DNA of 64,000 nt, taken from Amoebophrya sp. A120. Lineage: Eukaryota > Protista > Dinoflagellata. Both the position numbers and the translations under genes were made by a program. Positions 36,229 to 52,225 of the stretch are shown here, piece by piece. Location: NCBI GenBank assembly GCA_905178155.1, contig CAJINV010000012.1, positions 2,581,407 to 2,645,406 of the forward strand, given 5' to 3'. Positions within the stretch are counted from its first letter, which is position 1; each line of letters opens with the position of its first letter. The notes below the pieces were generated by a model, which was given only the letters and a program-made list of their open reading frames with translations, did not search any database and had not been told where the DNA came from.

Positions 36229-39200
36229 TCAAGGCCCTGCGCTGCTCAACGAGTTATGCGCGTCGTGGTCTCCCCCGGTTTTCCGTTGGTAATTTGAGGA
36301 CGCCAAAGACATCGTTGACGCGGCGGGCCGGCCAGAATTACTCGTACTGTGCGAAGTATTGCTCCCGCCTCCCCTCCCGGCTAAGTGCGTCGTGATGACC
36401 TGCGCCTTGCGCGCGAGCTTCTGGAACATCGTGCGTTTCTCGTTTGCCAACCGGAATTTCTGGGACTTGGACCGGTGCTTCCGGAACCGGTCGATCCCCT
36501 CCCGCGGGCGGAGACACCCGTGGGTCTCAAATTCCTCGAACACGGTGACATCGTCGCCCTCCTCGCCGTTAGAGGACGCAGATGCGCCTAGTGGTCTCTT
36601 GATATTGCTAATATCCTCATTGTCGTCGAAGGAAACTGTTGGTCTTCTTTCTTTTTGATGTCCGCCGGCAGCTCTAGTACTCTGTATTGCATGGTCTACT
36701 GGGTCCACTTCCCCACCCGAAGAACTCATCTCTTCCTGCAACAAATCCTGACTACTCGACCGCGCTTTGCTCCCCTGATGCGCTAAGGTACTGAGGTTCG
36801 CTGCGCTCGAGCCTACCACCTGCTCCCCGTCACCTGCAGCGCTGCTATCCCGTCGTCTCACCGCGCGGACCGGACCGGACGGTGTGTCGGACATCGATAG
36901 ACCGTGTCGGGTCCTTTTCGTGAGCATGGTACTGTGATCCTCGATGCGCTGGCCGATGATTTCTACCTCTGGATGAGCGTGGTGGTGGTCACCGCTTGCC
37001 GCGTATCAAATGTAAAAATGTCTGGGTCTGGAAGAGTGCGCGATTTGTCACGCAGCTTTTCCATGACCCATGAGGTCTGGAATGCATGACCTAGCATGAC
37101 AGGTTCTGTGCGATGTCTCTCATGCCTATCCTGCATGAGAAACTCCCTCCCGACTTGGTCAAAACCGGACGACTTTTGGTAATCATGCAACACAGATTTT
37201 TGCATGCTTCAGATTTAGCATGACAAGTTGCATTCTTCCAGACCCAGACATTTTTATATTTGATACCGCGTCGCCGATGGCTATAATCTGTTCGTCCAAG
37301 ATTTGATATCGCAAGAAAAAAGTGTTACAGTTACACATTGTGTTGCAGGAGCCGCAAGACAGACAATCTTTGTCTTGCAGGAAATGCCTGCGAGCCTCGT
37401 TTCCTACGTATTTTCTCCATATGATCTTTGCATTACAAGTTTTCTCTTGCACACAGAGAAAGTTTGTGATGCAGAAAGCTCAACAAATGTGTAACTGTAA
37501 CACTTTTTTCTTGTGATATTTGACCATCAAGACCTACTATGTGGTCCCCGTGCTCGCCACCACCCTCACTTGACGTGGTTTTTGAAGTAGAACCACCGCG
37601 GGGACTAATGCCACTGGTGTCTTCTGCTGACCCCTGAAGAGTCTGCCCGTTTGTTGTATGCATTGCAAACATGTCTTGTGGGCCTGGAAGTAGTTTGATG
37701 GGGGGAGATAATTGCCATGCAAATTGTACATGACCCGCAACGCGTGTGATGCATACTGTATCACACAGCCTTTGGTGCAAAGGCTTCCTCACACTTAAAC
37801 CTATCCCTATTGTGCTTGAGAAATGCCCACCTCTCCGGTTGGAAAACATCTGAGCACCTTTATTTACTGCAGCTCATGCTTTGCCGGCTTTTGTATGAAG
37901 ATCGACAGGCAGCATCACGAATCCCATTCTTTCCAGACCCAGATCGATATAGTAATTTGCAATGCGTATTTAGCATTGAAAAACGACATGTAGCTGAAAT
38001 TCGAAACCACATTTCCCAATTTTTTCGAAGATTTCTTCTGTACCCGCATTCCAAATTTCACCATCATCTCGTCCACGTCGCACAGACAACTGTCATCCAA
38101 CAGTGGTATCATGTCCGAGCGTGGATGCAGCAGCATGCACATGGTCCTGTCCATATCGTCTTGGAAGTGCTCCAGCGGAAGATCGTTATCGTCATCACCG
38201 AACGGGTTCTCCAGTTCTATCGAAATGTGGTTCAACGTATGAGAGTGCACAACTCCCCCTCCCCCTGATTTGTCATGCAAAACCCCAAATCCAAGTGCTT
38301 CCCTGGGGCACTGTCTGCATAACAGATGCCGGAAGCAGCCCAAACAGTACTAAAATAGGCGCGTGAATTTGTCATGCACAGGCTCCACGTGTGCTGGTGT
38401 TCGTGTTTGTATTGCTGTGTATGCAAAAATACAAATGACGGGGAGGGGGAGTAGTAGTTGTGCACTCTCATACAACGCGGCGAGTATCCAGAGCGGAAAG
38501 AAGACGAGGATGCAGGCCAAAACCTTGTTTTTCACCATGCTGGTGATTACGATCGGCGACAGCACCGAGTAGGCGTAGAGCGAAACGATGATCAACTGGA
38601 CGTAGGGAAACGGGAACTTCGTGTTTGTGATCTTCTTCGTGTTCAAAAAGTGCACGAAGCCACGGGATATGGTCTGAAACACACGGGAGAGAATCGGGGA
38701 GGGGACGTCGAGCAACTGGGCGTGGTGCGCGGTGATGATGAGGGATTGCATCAAGTGCAGCACCATTTCCACCTTGTTGAATTTGTACGTCGAGGAGAGC
38801 TCGTTGATGTACTTCAGGAACGGCTTCCCTAACGAGCTCTTGTCCAGCGTCAACACGTCGATGCAGTTCCCACTCATCTCCTCTAGTGCAAACCCGTGCA
38901 GCAAGGACATCAGCCTGACGAGCGTGTGCCGAAATTTCACCACGCGCCAGTGCATCACCGGCGACTTCTATCGCAAGAACAAACTGTCTCACTGTGAACT
39001 TGTGATGCAGCCAATGGAGCACAGAACGATTTGTCTTGCTACACCTGCAAGACGTTGGATTTTTTACCGTGTTTTCACTTGGGAAGTGAGCATGGCAAAT
39101 TTTCTGTGTGGTCATGTGTAACAAACTTGTGACGCAGATCTTGCAAGATCATCACAGTGAAACAGTTTTTTCGTGGGATAACTTCTGCTTCGCGTGGATG

Positions 39201-39529
39201 GAAAAGGAGATACAGTTCGAGACCGTGTCAAACCACTCGGCCCGCATCATGTGCATCAAACCCGTGCCCTCCCAAAACCTTGCAATCCCTCGCGACGTGC
39301 GAAACTGGATCAGCATCAGTAAAACCGCACTGACGGAAGACCAGATTGCCGAGCCGGTCAACGTGTCGAGTTTCAGGGTTTCGCGGTCGTAAAAATTCTC
39401 GTCCTCCAGAATCAACAGAATTAACGCCAAACAGCAGGACGGCAGGGAGAAATAGAGCGCGCGGAGGCCGACGGACCCGTCCCAACGGAACAGGAGCGGA
39501 AAGAACCACTCCTCTGTGTAGTCTATCAT
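36229..39529 (-). CDS. Bestrophin-family (bacterial/plant-type) ion channel, 6 exons
   Basis: LIQFRTSRGIARFWEG, TKFPFPYVQL and AL|NHISIELENPFGDDDNDLPL; frame continuous after removing 5 introners. Confidence 0.85.
37004..37265. mobile_element. Introner family A
   Basis: TATCAAATGTAAAAATGTCTGGGTCTGGAAGA...TCTTCCAGACCCAGACATTTTTATATTTGATA; DR ccgcg. Confidence 0.9.
37307..37518. mobile_element. Introner family G
   Basis: TATCGCAAGAAAAAAGTGTTACAGTTACACATT...AATGTGTAACTGTAACACTTTTTTCTTGTGATA; DR tttga. Confidence 0.9.
37657..37968. mobile_element. Degenerate introner family A (TATGCATTGCA ends)
   Basis: TATGCATTGCAAACATGTC...TTCCAGACCCAGA...TTTGCAATGCGTA; DR tgttg/tttag; spliced NAK|NGQ. Confidence 0.7.
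38238..38472. mobile_element. Introner family C
   Basis: TATGAGAGTGCACAACT...AGTTGTGCACTCTCATA; DR caacg. Confidence 0.9.
38969..39180. mobile_element. Introner family G variant
   Basis: TATCGCAAGAACAAACTGTCTCACTGTGA...TCACAGTGAAACAGTTTTTTCGTGGGATA; DR acttc. Confidence 0.85.
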
Positions 39530-40467
39530 GGTTTAATATTGGAGTTCTCTGGTGAAGATGTACTATTGCCCTGCGTGATCTTCGGAGTAGTAGTTTTCCT
39601 CGTTCTTCGGCGGTCGTGTGGTACTTGCAACGGGGCCGCGGAAAGTCCACCGTTCGACGAGGCTCCACTGCTCCGTTTTTTCTGCGCAGTTCGGAGTTTT
39701 GTTACGATGCGGGATAAACCTCCTTCAGCAGAAGTAGTGCGCCGTCTGCACCACAGGTCGTGGGGGAATTATACCTTGTACTCATTGCTCTTGGAAAAGT
39801 AAAGCAATCTTCAAGACTGCTTTCAGAGTTCTTGCTCAATATGCTATCTCAATTTATGCTTGTATCAAGATGCTACCGAGCAGTAAACTGTTTGTCTGGT
39901 AGTTCTGGATCTGGTGGTGGGGTAAGTAAGTAATACTAGGGTACGTGGGTTGGTGTTGGTCAAAAGTAGAACAAGACAAGGTACTATGATTTTCACAGTG
40001 TTGTAGAAAACAGTTTCGATTTGATGGACCTCGTCCCTATGGTCATCTATGCAGAGCTAGGGGGTGGGGGCCGAACGCCGGATAGATTGGATTTGGAACC
40101 ATTACCATAGTGGTCTTACTGTAGAGAGGTTCGTCGAGTTTTCCACCTTATGAGTAGAAACGAAACAACCACTGAAACACAATCACGAGGACGATTAAGC
40201 TATACGGCTTTGATTGCGCCAAAACTACCGTACGAAATACGTGGGTTGATTGAACGAGTTGCTTTTCATTTGTGGTTGCACGACGGTGAGATTTTCACGG
40301 AGAGGAGCGAAACTTGCACGACAAGACGAGAACGAATTCGCTAAACAAAGAGGACGCGATGAACGAAGCCGGAACAAAAGACTGAAACTTCTGAAGGACG
40401 ACACCAACAGGAGGCATTCTACCGAATCCGAACCCGAAGACTTTTAAACAAAATGAAAATCATGCAA

Positions 40468-44127: not shown

Positions 44128-45332
44128 TTACGAAAACTGGTACATGATGAGCAGCCACACCACCTCGACGAAGTGAAAGTAGGTATGCAGTGCCAAAGCA
44201 TTTTGCTCGCAGTCGTACGAAATGCGAATTAGTCATGACACATATCTTTCTTTTACCCTTTCCAGCATGACAAACTTTTCCCTATGTGTTCATCCCGGAG
44301 ATGAAATTTGTATTGTAAATGCGATTCCAGTTCCACCCACGTCGAGAACCGATAGCGATGCTTTTGCAAAAATGCGTAGTAGATGATCGGCAGCAACTTT
44401 TTCGTGTACTGGGCGGTGTTGCGGGTGTGCTGCGAGTATCAAATGCAAAAATGTCTGGGTCTGGAAGGATGCGAACTTGTGATGCGTGTTTCGGATCCTA
44501 CAAAGATCTGTGATGCATAACGTGCAAAAGGTGCCCACTTCTGGCCATGCTGAGAGAGCATTTCTCATGCAGAACACGCGTCACCAAGGAGCTGCAGAAC
44601 CTGTGATGCTAGGCCCTGCATTCCAGACGTGGGGGAACTTGGAAAAACTGCATGACAAAGCTCGGAATCTCCCAGACCCAGACTTTTTTGCATTTGATAG
44701 CGAGTTCACCAGGTGCCCGTGCCGGTACCCGTGGGGCACGTCGCCGAACCGCCGCATGTCATTGTTCGGCGTCCCGATCGGATTGTCGTACTGTGGCACG
44801 TTCGGGTTCTGCGCCAGCCCGGCCAGGATGATGCAGCGCTGCGCCTCCGTTATCCTGTGTAAAAACGTCCGCACCCCAGAGTTGTCATGCAAATGTGCAA
44901 TGGCAGGAGCATCTGTAATGCGCATTCCCATGACAGGCGTTTCCAGTCGTGTTTTGGCTTTTGTAATGCTGTAAACAGCATGAGAAAATGGCTTTCCCAT
45001 GCGGCTTCCCTTGCCAAGCACCACAATACTGCAGATGAAAACTTGTCATGCACAACTCCCAAAACTTGAAGATTTGTGTTGCAGATTTACAAGCTTAACT
45101 ATGGGGTGGGGACGTTTTTGCTCAGCATATCCGTGAGGATGTTCCTCTGCACTTGCGAAATCAGCTTCAGCGGTGCGGTCGGGCTGGTCGTCGTCACGGA
45201 GGAAGCCGGGGCCACCGCGGTCGCAAAGTTGCGGTTGAAAGCGAAGGGTGAACTGTAGAACGCCGGTTTGGTTGATTGGTGCTGCAGAGCAGCCTTGTAC
45301 TGGCCGCGAATCGCGCGGCCCAGGAGCGTCAT
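44128..45332 (-). CDS. cox3: Putative nucleus-encoded, mitochondrion-targeted cytochrome c oxidase subunit 3 C-terminal fragment (last TM helix), 4 exons, 150 aa
   Basis: Spliced: MTLLGRAIRGQYKAALQHQSTKPAFYSSPFAFNRNFATAV...ILTE|AQRC...LVNS|QHTRNTAQYTKKLLPIIY|FHFVEVVWLLIMYQFS*. N-terminus is acid-free and R/K/S/A-rich; C-terminus resembles COX3 YWHFV(D/E)(V/I)(V/I)WL. Confidence 0.65.
44184..44378. mobile_element. Degenerate introner family B (intron of cox3 fragment gene)
   Basis: TATGCAGTGCCAAAGCAT...ATGCTTTTGCAAAAATGCGTA; DR gtagg/gtaga. Confidence 0.75.
44437..44699. mobile_element. Introner family A
   Basis: TATCAAATGCAAAAATGTCTGGGTCTGG...CCAGACCCAGACTTTTTTGCATTTGATA; DR gcgag. Confidence 0.9.
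44851..45129. mobile_element. Introner family F
   Basis: TATCCTGTGTAAAAACGTCCGCACCCCA...TGGGGTGGGGACGTTTTTGCTCAGCATA; DR tccgt. Confidence 0.9.
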
Positions 45333-46019
45333 GGTTGGTGGGTCGTGCTAGCAGTGCTAGTGCCGCGACAATGAACTGCAGTCTTTGTCGTGCGATGAAT
45401 TGTCGTCCAAAACAGACGGCGTCTTCGACATCCAGAGGGCGAAAACAACTAGTTAGTACAATCAAGGATGTCGATTTTAAGTAGAGAGTAGACCAACGAA
45501 TAGAGTAGACGCGTCGAAGTCGTGCCGGGGATAATTCTTTCACCTTGCGGAAGAGCTTCTCTTTAGCACTCGGTTGTTGATGCAGCCACGTTTAGCACTC
45601 GAGTGATACAGCTATCTCGTTGCAGGAGCAACCTCAACAAACGGCTGGAGGAAAAGCAAAAAAATAAGCCACTCGCAATAGAAACAGTTACACCTCCTCT
45701 GCGTCTCTCGTATTTCTCCATAGCTGCCCACAGAAGGGGGCGAGCTGCGCAGTCCAGTGCGAGCACCGGAACTCGGCAGCTTCGACGGCGTTCTTATTGC
45801 CGCTACCGACACGTACAGTGGAATGACGTGGCATCAAATCAGCCAAGTAAGTTCTTTACAACATGCGCCATAAAAGTCGAACAAGAAAGACGGTTGCCCG
45901 CAAACGCATCTTGCGATGCAGATATGCAGCTGTCACAGAGGAGAGGCAGTTCGTACGGTACGATTCGATATCTGCAAGTGTTCGTTCGTAAGAATTACGG
46001 CTGTTTCTCGATTTCCTGT

Positions 46020-47634
46020 TCACCTCACCAGCTCCCAGCTGGAGCTGTCCATACCGCCGGCGTTGCTGGTGTTCAGGACCAGTTGCACACTGTTCTCGAT
46101 GAATCGACCATGTTTCTGAACATGATTTTCTTGTGCGTTACAACCGGCATCAGAACTTTTTTGATGTTGCTCCACCCCGTCCGCGTCCTCAATACCGACG
46201 TTTGCAGCATCATCATCACTAAGATAGCCGCCCGCAACGTGTCCAAACGCCCTCAATTCCACCTGGTTCGGAATGAATTTCACCAAAACTACAGAGCCCC
46301 TGTCCGTCTCAGATGAAGTTCCTCCGCTACTTCTGGAATAGTTCAGTCTGTAGTAATCCACCAGCTCAGAGTCATCCACCACGACTAATCGCCCGTTTAA
46401 CGTGCAAGACGCCTGTCGCAGAGTGCTCGGGTAGAACAAAGCGCCTTGGCGGTCGGCCGGGAGCTGGGCGGAAACAGTTTTACTGCTAACGGCGGCTTGT
46501 TTCGTTGGTCCGGGTCCGCTGGAAGATGCTAATATAGTTTCATTTTCATTCTCGCTCATCCCGTTGTTCTCAAGACTCATCCAGAAATAGATTTGCCTGA
46601 ACGCCCTCTTTGGCTGATTCACGTCCACCGTATGGGAAAACAACGTTGCGATGTCGGACGTCAGTGGCTCGGAAAAGGTCTGGAGCTGCTCCAAAGTCTC
46701 CTGTGACTGTGGTACGACGCGCTGCGACTCTGGGGGGAGAGGCTTCACGCGTTTCAGCTGGATAGCATTTGCCGTGGCGCTTCGGCGAGCACCAGGACCA
46801 GACGTTGAAGTTGGGTTTGAATTATTCGTGGGTGCGACGAGGAAAACGTCTTGGGAAGAGTTCATCACACCTGTTTTGTATTCCGCAATGAGATTTCATC
46901 GAGACAAGCGGTTCGCACAGCACAGATGCACTTCCACTTTTGGTACTGCTCATCATTCTGAAATTCATGTCGGCCCACCTATACAGATCTATCTTCCAGT
47001 GTTGCATTCACTCAATCCAGAAACAAATCAAGAACTCATCAGTACGCAAAACTTCCTCGACCACTGCCTGTGGGTTGTCAGGTATGACCATCAAAGAGTT
47101 CGCGATTCTTTCCAGCTTCCTTTTCCGGAAGTATTTGATCGCAGCTGCCACCGGTACTGCGTGGCAGAGGAAAAACAGTAAGAGAATTTTCGCCGTGAAG
47201 TAATTCTTTTTCGGTTTCTGTAGAATCGGCTCGGGTTTTGGGAGAAAGCCCGCGAGCTGCTGTGCGGTTGGGTAGTTTATTTGAAGCTGATTCGGACCAC
47301 TTGCAGCTGCATGTAGTAGTCCTCCGGATGGAGTTGTAGAGGTGTCGTAATCCACCAGCTGGCTTGAGGATGAGGTGGTTCTCGTTGCTGTAGGGGCTAG
47401 GTGACTTGCTGCTCCGCTTCTGTTGGCCGCAAACAACCAAGAGAGTTGCTGCGCTCCGGGGAATGACGCCGTTGCCGCTTTTCGCAGTGTTGGAGAGGAC
47501 GAGAAAGTTGCAAATGCTGCTCTGCTTGTTTTCCCATGTGGCAATAGCAAACGGAAAGACGAAGACCTGTTCCTCGTGCAGGCTGACGGTATTCTGGCCC
47601 GCCACAGGGGCGAGGACGAGACTGAGATTGTCAT
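46020..47634 (-). CDS. Hypothetical, probably mitochondrial single-TM protein, weakly resembling an FMN split-barrel fold; GT-AG intron 46871-47045; 3' end uncertain
   Basis: R/S/A-rich N-terminus; TM ILLLFFLCHAVPVAAAI; in-frame join EEVL|RVMNSS; IYFWM...ALFY...LNGRLVVVDD...VLVKFIP pattern judged by eye. Confidence 0.5.
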
Positions 47635-50736: not shown

Positions 50737-52225
50737 TCAACTCCACGACTCTCCTACACCAGACTCAACAGCCAGCTCCGTCTTCAGCCTTGCCACCTTG
50801 GCCCGCAGCAACTGCCGCAACTTCGGCACGAAGACCGGAAGTGCGGGAACAGAATTTCGGAGCATTTCTTCACCGCTTCGCGTTTGCCAGAAGTCGTGTA
50901 AGCGCAGAAATTCCGCCTCGATTTTTTCCAGCAAAAGTTCGTTTTCTTCTGCCGTGTTTCTGTTGCTGCTGAGTTTCTGCTGCAGCTGCTCGAGTGGTAG
51001 GTCGAGGAGGACCTGGAAAGCGGATTGTTTTACAGAATCAGGTCGAAGCTATTCATGATCTTCACGATTCTGCATCACAAACTTCTCCACATTTTGAGAT
51101 CTTGCACGACAAAAACCAACAATCAAATAAAGCTTCCAGGTTTGTGCAGATCTGAATGTATGTGGATGCCTATTAAAGAACTTCAATCAGACAAAAATAT
51201 GGGAATTTGTCTTTCCGCCGATGTTGTCGTGACAACGCCATCAGTGCGAAAGACTAATTTGTAATTCCGTGTCATCATGAAATTTTGATCTTGTACGGTT
51301 CTGTTGGAGAAGCAGCAACAGTACGATATTTCGTATTGCTGAGGCAGGTCGGATGTAAAAATGGATCAGCACACATGCTGCTACTTGTGAGTCAACTTTA
51401 TCTATACCTCATGCTCCTCCCAGGAAAAGGCGAACAATTTCGGCGGCTCCGCATTTTTCGCATACTCCACGTCGAAGAAGCAGTGCAAACAGTACAACAC
51501 CGACGCGGTTAACGCGGCGACCTTGCTATTCAGGTCGTACCGGATAAAAGAAGAACTCGACGTGATGTTGGACAGAGAAGGGGCAGCTCCACTACTATTC
51601 ACTTTGTTCTTTCCCATAACTTCATTTGCCGCTACCTGAAGCAGACTGCTAGATGAGTTGGTGCGGCTCGTGGTGCCAAAATAACCCCCCGAAGATGCTG
51701 CTGCGCTTGTCGTGAAAGGTGTAGCTGACGTGCCTCCACCAGGGCTTTTTGTTTTTGATGCAGCGAATGAACTTGTAATACAATTTGATGAGCTACTGGA
51801 GGAGCTACCATGATGCCGGCTGTCATCGTCGTACAAGGCCACTTTGGCGTGCACGAGATCCTCCTTCTCGATTGCGTCCCACGCGATCCGGACTAATTTC
51901 TCCAGTGGATTGCTGTTATATGCATTGCAAATAAAGCTGCATCGTGCTAGTACTAGTTATAAACTGCATGACAAATTTTCCTACAGAAGAGAAGTGGAAT
52001 TTGTAAATGCCGATTTATTACCTAATGTCGAGGATTTATCATGCATGATCACTGTAATTACTACGAGCATGATACTTTTGCAGTGCATATGGTGCCGACT
52101 GCGTTGATCCCGTTGCCCGCCGGATCATGGTGGCGGTTTGTTCTCTCTGCCGTTGCGTGAAGGTTGACCTGCTGTGTGGCGTGCTCCGCACCGCCGGTCA
52201 CGAGGCTGGATTTAGAGGAGGGCAT
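50737..52225 (-). CDS. Hypothetical protein; internal exon structure partly unresolved
   Basis: ATG 52225 joins ORF 51402-51854 in frame after introner removal; GT donor after WEEHE; ORF 50737-50934 is a likely last exon. Confidence 0.45.
51919..52089. mobile_element. Degenerate introner family B
   Basis: TATGCATTGCAAA...GATACTTTTGCAGTGCATA; DR tgtta/tggtg; frame restored. Confidence 0.75.

Follow-up and report, generated by a model that had tools for sequence, protein, structure and literature searches.

The minus strand of the 64-kb window (the whole stretch of Amoebophrya sp. A120 DNA that was analysed, 64,000 nucleotides) carries a nuclear gene of four exons that is real, spliced, and strongly conserved. 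Judged from its sequence, the 150-residue product is probably a COX3 helix-7 subunit of complex IV (cytochrome c oxidase) encoded in the nucleus; we treat it as a candidate for that role. In published work, coxIII was concluded to have been lost outright in strain AT5 (PMC6482013), cox3 was listed as missing in strains A25 and A120 (PMC7789003), and it is disputed whether these strains have a mitochondrial genome and how their complex IV works without cox3. An earlier interpretation of the window, made from its letters alone (the sequence-only reading), had proposed that the gene encodes only the last helix of COX3 behind a mitochondrial presequence. Our analysis confirms the splicing pattern, supports the helix and the leader, and corrects parts of the proposal.

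Gene structure and splicing

The removal of three introns had been predicted to leave a clean frame of 453 nt; the sum of the four minus-strand exons and their translation into an open 150-residue frame agree with this prediction, and its end points stand. The features, in window coordinates and in the direction of transcription, are as follows.

46377–47265 and 51417–51899, minus strand: coding pieces of the upstream neighbour, matching the front of AT5 g8588 at 36–59% identity
45333–45449, minus strand: 5′ untranslated part, covered by spliced contigs
45130–45332, minus strand: exon 1, with the ATG, the predicted presequence, an S/T/A/P-rich linker, and the start of the conserved part
44846–45129, minus strand: intron 1, 284 nt, an introner with TAT...ATA inverted ends and one copy of a 5-bp direct repeat
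44700–44845, minus strand: exon 2, a conserved, mostly hydrophilic segment of no known family, predicted to face the matrix
44432–44699, minus strand: intron 2, 268 nt, an introner whose inverted arms measure 42 nt and whose direct repeat measures 6 bp
44379–44431, minus strand: exon 3, a loop, two lysines, and the beginning of the membrane helix
44179–44378, minus strand: intron 3, 200 nt, degenerate and non-canonical, with a 5-bp direct repeat, present as a single copy in the window
44128–44178, minus strand: exon 4, 51 nt, the COX3 helix-7-like motif and the stop codon
43700–44127, minus strand: 3′ untranslated region; contigs extend to 43753–43700 or beyond

All three introns (284, 268, and 200 nt) were skipped exactly, with zero mismatches, in 4 of 4 RNA-like runs (X1, X2, X3, and X4), each of which yielded one spliced contig of 933–1009 nt; the predicted joints and frame are thereby confirmed in a single sample, whose runs are RNA by the tool's guess and whose contigs give no information on strand or on rare forms. 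The contigs span the gene's own 5′ region onward with no foreign piece joined, and their 5′ ends lie at 45449 in X1 and X2 and at 45437 in X3 and X4, a contig end not being the same as a mapped start. None of the three joints was present in runs X5, X6, and X7 from another study, and X5 and X6 contained a contiguous piece through intron 3; the skips are therefore absent as DNA in those runs. The one recorded RNA run analysed, X8, gave just partial reads on introner ends and contributes no evidence.

The direct repeats at the junctions are exact over 5, 6, and 5 bp for introns 1, 2, and 3, respectively. Introns 1 and 2 have related copies elsewhere in the window, the arms of intron 1 being 33 nt long and 85% complementary, and both match the published A120 introners in their TAT-starting inverted ends, short direct repeat, and repetition in the genome (PMC7789003). 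Intron 3 has a repeat and short arms, with no other copy found in the window; its description as degenerate and non-canonical stands. Its coordinates as first given lay one base off the exact repeat, and the same mRNA results. On the plus strand, antisense to the gene, the intron-3 joint (44178–44382) also permits a GT..AG reading, which probably arises from the inverted ends together with the repeat.

When intron 3 is retained, the predicted product has 175 residues and is thus as long as the public A120 model P0002; that model runs into intron 3 and does not contain the helix-7 motif. The suggestion that the odd intron hides the gene from searches thus applies to A120 but not to A25 and AT5, whose models already contain the motif; in these two strains, the gene has likely gone unrecognised through the shortness of its COX3 match. 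The coding sequence has a GC content of 0.61 and a GC3 of 0.86, which is typical of a long-resident nuclear gene.

Two observations concern the surroundings of the gene. A multi-exon gene lies on the minus strand at 37750–39532 and, judged by its motifs, appears to encode a bestrophin-type membrane protein. COX6B of A120 is gene model 7306 and the present gene is model 7317, 11 numbers apart; three COX6B motifs sought in the 64-kb window were not found. Complex IV genes reach their peak 30–36 h into infection.

Orthologues and conservation

A protein named for Amoebophrya sp. A120 matches the exon 2 product at 100% identity. The orthologues are the stand-alone A25 protein P0004 (145 residues, gene model GSA25T00016954001) and the last part of the AT5 protein P0003 (g8588, 475 residues), and both end in the same motif, as would be expected if the motif were conserved. 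The counterpart of the front of P0003 in the window is the upstream neighbour, and gene order is conserved between A120 and AT5. Since the A120 contigs cover the present gene alone and the front part corresponds to the upstream neighbour, we reject the 475-residue AT5 fusion as a true protein; it is most likely a gene-model artefact.

Over the last 90 residues, which form the predicted mature part, pairwise comparisons of the three strains give 78, 81, and 79 identical residues (87–90% identity), with 75 of 90 positions, and 22 of the 24 terminal ones, invariant in all three. The mean identity of orthologues among A120, A25, and AT5 is reported as 48.2–51.2% (PMC7789003). Invariance at 75 of 90 positions against a genome mean of about 50% argues against a pseudogene, and the gene shares with nuclear split complex IV subunits the property of being expressed, nuclear, and under purifying selection. 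By contrast, the leader is weakly kept (17 of 60 residues identical to A25).

A search of 1.84 billion representative sequences returned 5 matches at E ≤ 0.001. Three of them are the Amoebophrya proteins; the other two (P0125 and P0126) are rich in repeats and were rejected as homologues because their matches are repeat-driven. No other myzozoan homologue was found among these representatives, a library in which the coverage of Syndiniales is uncertain. When metagenomes were scanned for relatives, 126 pattern matches resulted, of which 0 were confirmed, and an ESM Atlas search with the AT5 stretch gave no usable match. The homologues found are confined to the three strains reported without cox3 (A120, A25, and AT5).

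Domain organization of the product

The leader is acid-free, as the sequence-only reading had stated: the first 67 residues contain no D or E and seven R or K. From its composition, the leader looks like a cleavable mitochondrial presequence, predicted to comprise approximately residues 1–36 in A120 with an R-x-F site at residues 34–36; an amphipathic start and an R-x-F site occur within the first 36 residues in all three strains. Residues 61–126 form a mostly hydrophilic extension of about 65 residues, of which 53 of 66 are invariant, that matches no known family and fits no part of a seven-helix COX3. The product is therefore not merely the last helix of COX3 behind a presequence, since this conserved non-COX3 segment precedes the helix, and similarity to COX3 is absent from about 85% of the protein. 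A single hydrophobic segment (residues 129–147), preceded by two lysines, ends three residues before the stop. Compared with the five- to seven-helix COX3 bundle, this one segment makes the protein at most a fragment of COX3, not a full member of PF00510.

A single-sequence AlphaFold model had a mean pLDDT of 58 and was uninformative. The 0 matches obtained in Foldseek are likewise uninformative, as is a wide structural search that returned generic helical hairpins alone (best Z 6.7).

Similarity to COX3 helix 7

In sequence comparisons, the C-terminal helix fits best on helix 7 of COX3. (i) In PDB sequence searches, 5 of 5 matches of the 23-residue end and 3 of 3 matches of a 96-residue AT5 stretch were COX3 chains, with the best stretch on the last helix in each search; these matches have E values of 1.1–8.1. 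(ii) With a profile of 36 bacterial COX3 rows, the score was 11.1 bits (P 1.3e-5) for the spliced product, 11.4 bits for the A25 protein, 9.0 bits for the AT5 protein, and −2.0 bits for the intron-retaining model. When the whole protein was shuffled 20,000 times, none of the shuffles reached 11.1 bits; when shuffling was confined to the last 23 residues, 6 of 20,000 did. The best non-COX3 domain among 2,911 decoy ORFs scored 8.6 bits. The domain score of this protein is 10.5 bits, compared with 2.9–6.4 bits for chance loci bearing the motif. (iii) HHalign gave 68% with E 4.8e-5 over 23 columns. (iv) The last 17 residues fit a seven-helix COX3 at helix 7 with a score of 46, the next register scoring 14; alternative placements on helix 6 (1.8 versus 9.0 bits) and at the end of helix 1 (0.7 versus 10.0 bits) were rejected. 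(v) The motif lies 17 residues from the C-terminus, where about 20 would be expected and the 36 bacterial rows have 19–37.

The helix departs from its bacterial counterparts at three positions that do not vary among the 36 rows, having F for W, E for D, and M for F. Within the motif, the H and the second W are kept, the first W being F and the D being E; the comparison rows are bacterial and none is myzozoan. The dinoflagellate cox3H7 primers read W-H-F-V/L-E by hand translation (PMC3577742) and thus encode E at this position, which gives the E of the Amoebophrya motif a dinoflagellate parallel. In a seven-helix COX3 at L015:1330-2253, the H of the helix-7 motif, usually invariant, is replaced by D; core motif positions can thus change in full-length members.

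The similarity stays below the level of family recognition. No match was found in Pfam, including COX3 (PF00510), at E ≤ 10, nor at E ≤ 1 in one further scan, so that the product does not reach the family score of PF00510. A PDB search with the whole A25 protein gave 0 matches, and one with a three-row profile gave 2 unrelated matches. On a helix-7 PSSM of 14 columns, the helix scored 21.5 bits, compared with at least 40.3 bits for the rows used in building it. The per-position P of this score (2e-8 to 6e-7) corresponds, by our estimate, to about one chance match per proteome when the leader and the end position are not counted. The exact eight-residue motif occurs at 12 public loci, of which 0 are COX3. 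A small conserved metagenome family (L004, L010, L012, and L013), unrelated to COX3, carries the same eight-residue motif close to the N-terminus. In a viral contig (L050), a string that looked COX3-like and dinoflagellate-like lies antisense and was dismissed as a chance match.

A search with E. coli CyoC returned close bacterial relatives alone. As a calibration, our own 20-row COX3 profile listed no COX3 chain of Perkinsus or Tetrahymena at E ≤ 10 in a library that holds the COX1 chains of these structures and in which the presence of their COX3 chains is unconfirmed. The proposed homology to COX3 helix 7 is thus supported by profile, HHalign, and register but falls below significance in Pfam and the PDB. 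Because the motif has chance matches, it proves little by itself, and the case for COX3 rests on the conjunction of the motif, its distance from the stop, the mitochondrial-type leader, the near-invariance, and the occurrence in strains lacking a recognised cox3.

Comparison with known split core subunits

A nuclear C-terminal piece of COX3 is already known, namely COXEG1 of Euglena gracilis (PDB 8iuf chain 4A), a nuclear subunit with terminal extensions whose helices complete a shortened COX3 (PMC10884005). Described as filling absent COX3 helices, this chain looks like a transferred cox3 fragment. In our sequence searches, COXEG1 matched the C-terminal part of COX3 at E 4.3e-9 and E 4.2e-14. 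The Amoebophrya protein resembles COXEG1 as a nuclear piece that would stand for the C-terminal part of COX3 and bears an extension. It differs in that COXEG1 has three helices, a known mitochondrial partner, and a solved structure, whereas the Amoebophrya protein has one helix recognised from sequence alone; the two lineages are unrelated. In Tetrahymena, COX3 consists of two polypeptides (COX3a and COX3b, or Ymf67 and Ymf68), one supplying a single helix and both bearing large extensions (PMC10060162), and ciliate cox3 was formerly called absent (PMC6482013, PMC10060162). Unlike the Amoebophrya gene, both Tetrahymena COX3 genes are mitochondrial, and the break falls after helix 1, not helix 6.

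The position of the break, between helices 6 and 7, and the acidic E in the helix-7 motif are shared with core dinoflagellates, in which the mitochondrial exons cox3H1-6 and cox3H7 are put together at the RNA level to form one message (PMC3577742). By contrast with cox3H7, the Amoebophrya gene is a nuclear locus with introners, a GC content of 0.61, and its own start and leader. The sequence-only reading implied descent from the trans-spliced cox3H7. This descent is weakly founded: Hematodinium and Oxyrrhis are without the helix 6/7 split (PMC3577742), so that a common origin with the core dinoflagellate break is unsupported, and in Amoebophrya ex Karlodinium coxI, coxIII, and cytb are mitochondrial, coxIII being present in full and fragmented copies (PMC12005148). 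Convergence is probably the more likely origin of the helix 6/7 break.

The same three strains have nuclear cox1 pieces (ncox1a and ncox1b) with transit peptides, in which 39–48% of the length is COX1-like (PMC8136515, PMC9478091), and the present gene is similarly arranged, with a leader, an extension, and a short block that resembles a core subunit. In Perkinsus, COX2 is encoded by the nuclear pieces COX2A, COX2B, and COX2C, of which COX2A is a single helix (Perkinsus preprint). Unlike the present gene, these pieces were found by ordinary homology search, and they concern COX1 and COX2. For both cox2 and cox1, it has been proposed that a hydrophobic core subunit was divided into pieces that can be imported (PMC6482013; Perkinsus preprint).

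In the full-text literature available to us, to which subscription papers contribute little, we found no report of a single-helix nuclear COX3 piece in a myzozoan. The identifiers of this gene are absent from the published supplements searched, where g8588 appears just as a bare sequence. The gene was not seen in the 13 of 51 places of the complex IV table of PMC9478091 that were covered, and the accessible parts of PMC7793755, PMC10809612, PMC13631411, PMC9550989, PMC8554336, and PMC11346449 contain no report of it.

Proposed import and partner helices

We propose that the predicted presequence would drive import into the mitochondrion and then be cleaved off, and that the single C-terminal helix would stop transfer in the inner membrane, leaving the N-terminus in the matrix. 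COX3 has its N-terminus in the matrix and seven helices, and helix 7 therefore runs from the matrix to the intermembrane space. Such import would give the same orientation, and the two lysines before the helix fit the matrix side. The roughly 65-residue extension is predicted to face the matrix and may bind neighbouring subunits, like the extensions of the split COX3 of Euglena and Tetrahymena. The other COX3 helices would more plausibly come from further unrecognised nuclear or mitochondrial pieces than have been lost, loss retaining a considerable share of this case. No COX3-like sequence was found elsewhere in the 64-kb window. A helix-6 motif gave 7 matches in the part of the AT5 proteome searched, none seen in a short, leader-bearing, COX3-like protein; this was a weak search for partners, since the same part did not show the present gene's own motif.

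Alternative explanations

Within the COX3 reading, helices 1–6 could be gone altogether, so that helix 7 and its extension would make up the whole of subunit III in a shrunken complex IV. Three groups found no cox3 in genomes, reads, or transcriptomes (including PMC7789003 and PMC6482013), mtDNA-like contigs carry a cox1 piece alone (PMC8136515), and no fitting candidate was seen among the 7 helix-6 matches in AT5. Against these absences, alveolate COX3 is very hard to detect, as the failure of our own profile to list a Perkinsus or Tetrahymena chain at E ≤ 10 illustrates, and the part of the AT5 proteome searched missed even the motif of this gene; moreover, the strongly kept residues of helix 7 suggest that it still packs against something. 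We consider such a sole relic rather unlikely.

The likeness to COX3 could also be fortuitous, the product being a lineage-specific mitochondrial membrane protein that passes the membrane once, possibly one of the accessory subunits of complex IV or V. This would account for the lack of a significant database match, the replacement of an invariant W, the failure of all 12 exact motif loci to be COX3, the antisense chance match, and an expected number of chance matches per proteome estimated to be near one. But chance would have to supply in addition the leader, a stop 17 residues past the motif, and near-invariance, precisely in strains lacking cox3, and the chance motif loci score 2.9–6.4 bits against 10.5 for this domain; furthermore, with no homologue found in other myzozoans among the representatives searched, the protein is not a detectably conserved accessory subunit. 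We regard coincidence as improbable. Far less probable still is an inert, transcribed fragment of mitochondrial cox3 in the nucleus. The nuclear cox1 pieces of these strains have been flagged as possible NUMTs (PMC7789003, PMC6482013), but for the present gene this explanation is largely refuted by conservation (87–90% identity against an orthologue mean of about 50%), and the GC content of 0.61, the GC3 of 0.86, the gene's own ATG and leader, and the precise splicing stand against it as well. A nucleus-encoded helix-7 subunit of COX3 is thus the reading that we prefer.

Implications

If true, a helix-7 subunit would overturn the published view that cox3 is lost in A120, A25, and AT5: COX3 would have been split and moved, not simply lost. 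We further raise, tentatively and with more doubt than confidence, the possibility that no COX3 is left on the mtDNA of the three strains and that subunit III is reduced or cut to imported single helices. Were this so, (i) the helix-7 protein would be the first imported COX3 piece found; (ii) given the loss of cob and the nuclear location of most recognised cox1, the mtDNA would encode no more than one fragment of one protein; and (iii) dinoflagellates would have broken the loop between helices 6 and 7 on two independent occasions. The A25 model GSA25T00016954001 provides a bait for the remaining COX3 pieces. The candidate supports the idea that hydrophobic mitochondrial genes can reach the nucleus as cut helices that are importable, and it illustrates that a call of gene absence can conceal a homology of 17 residues.
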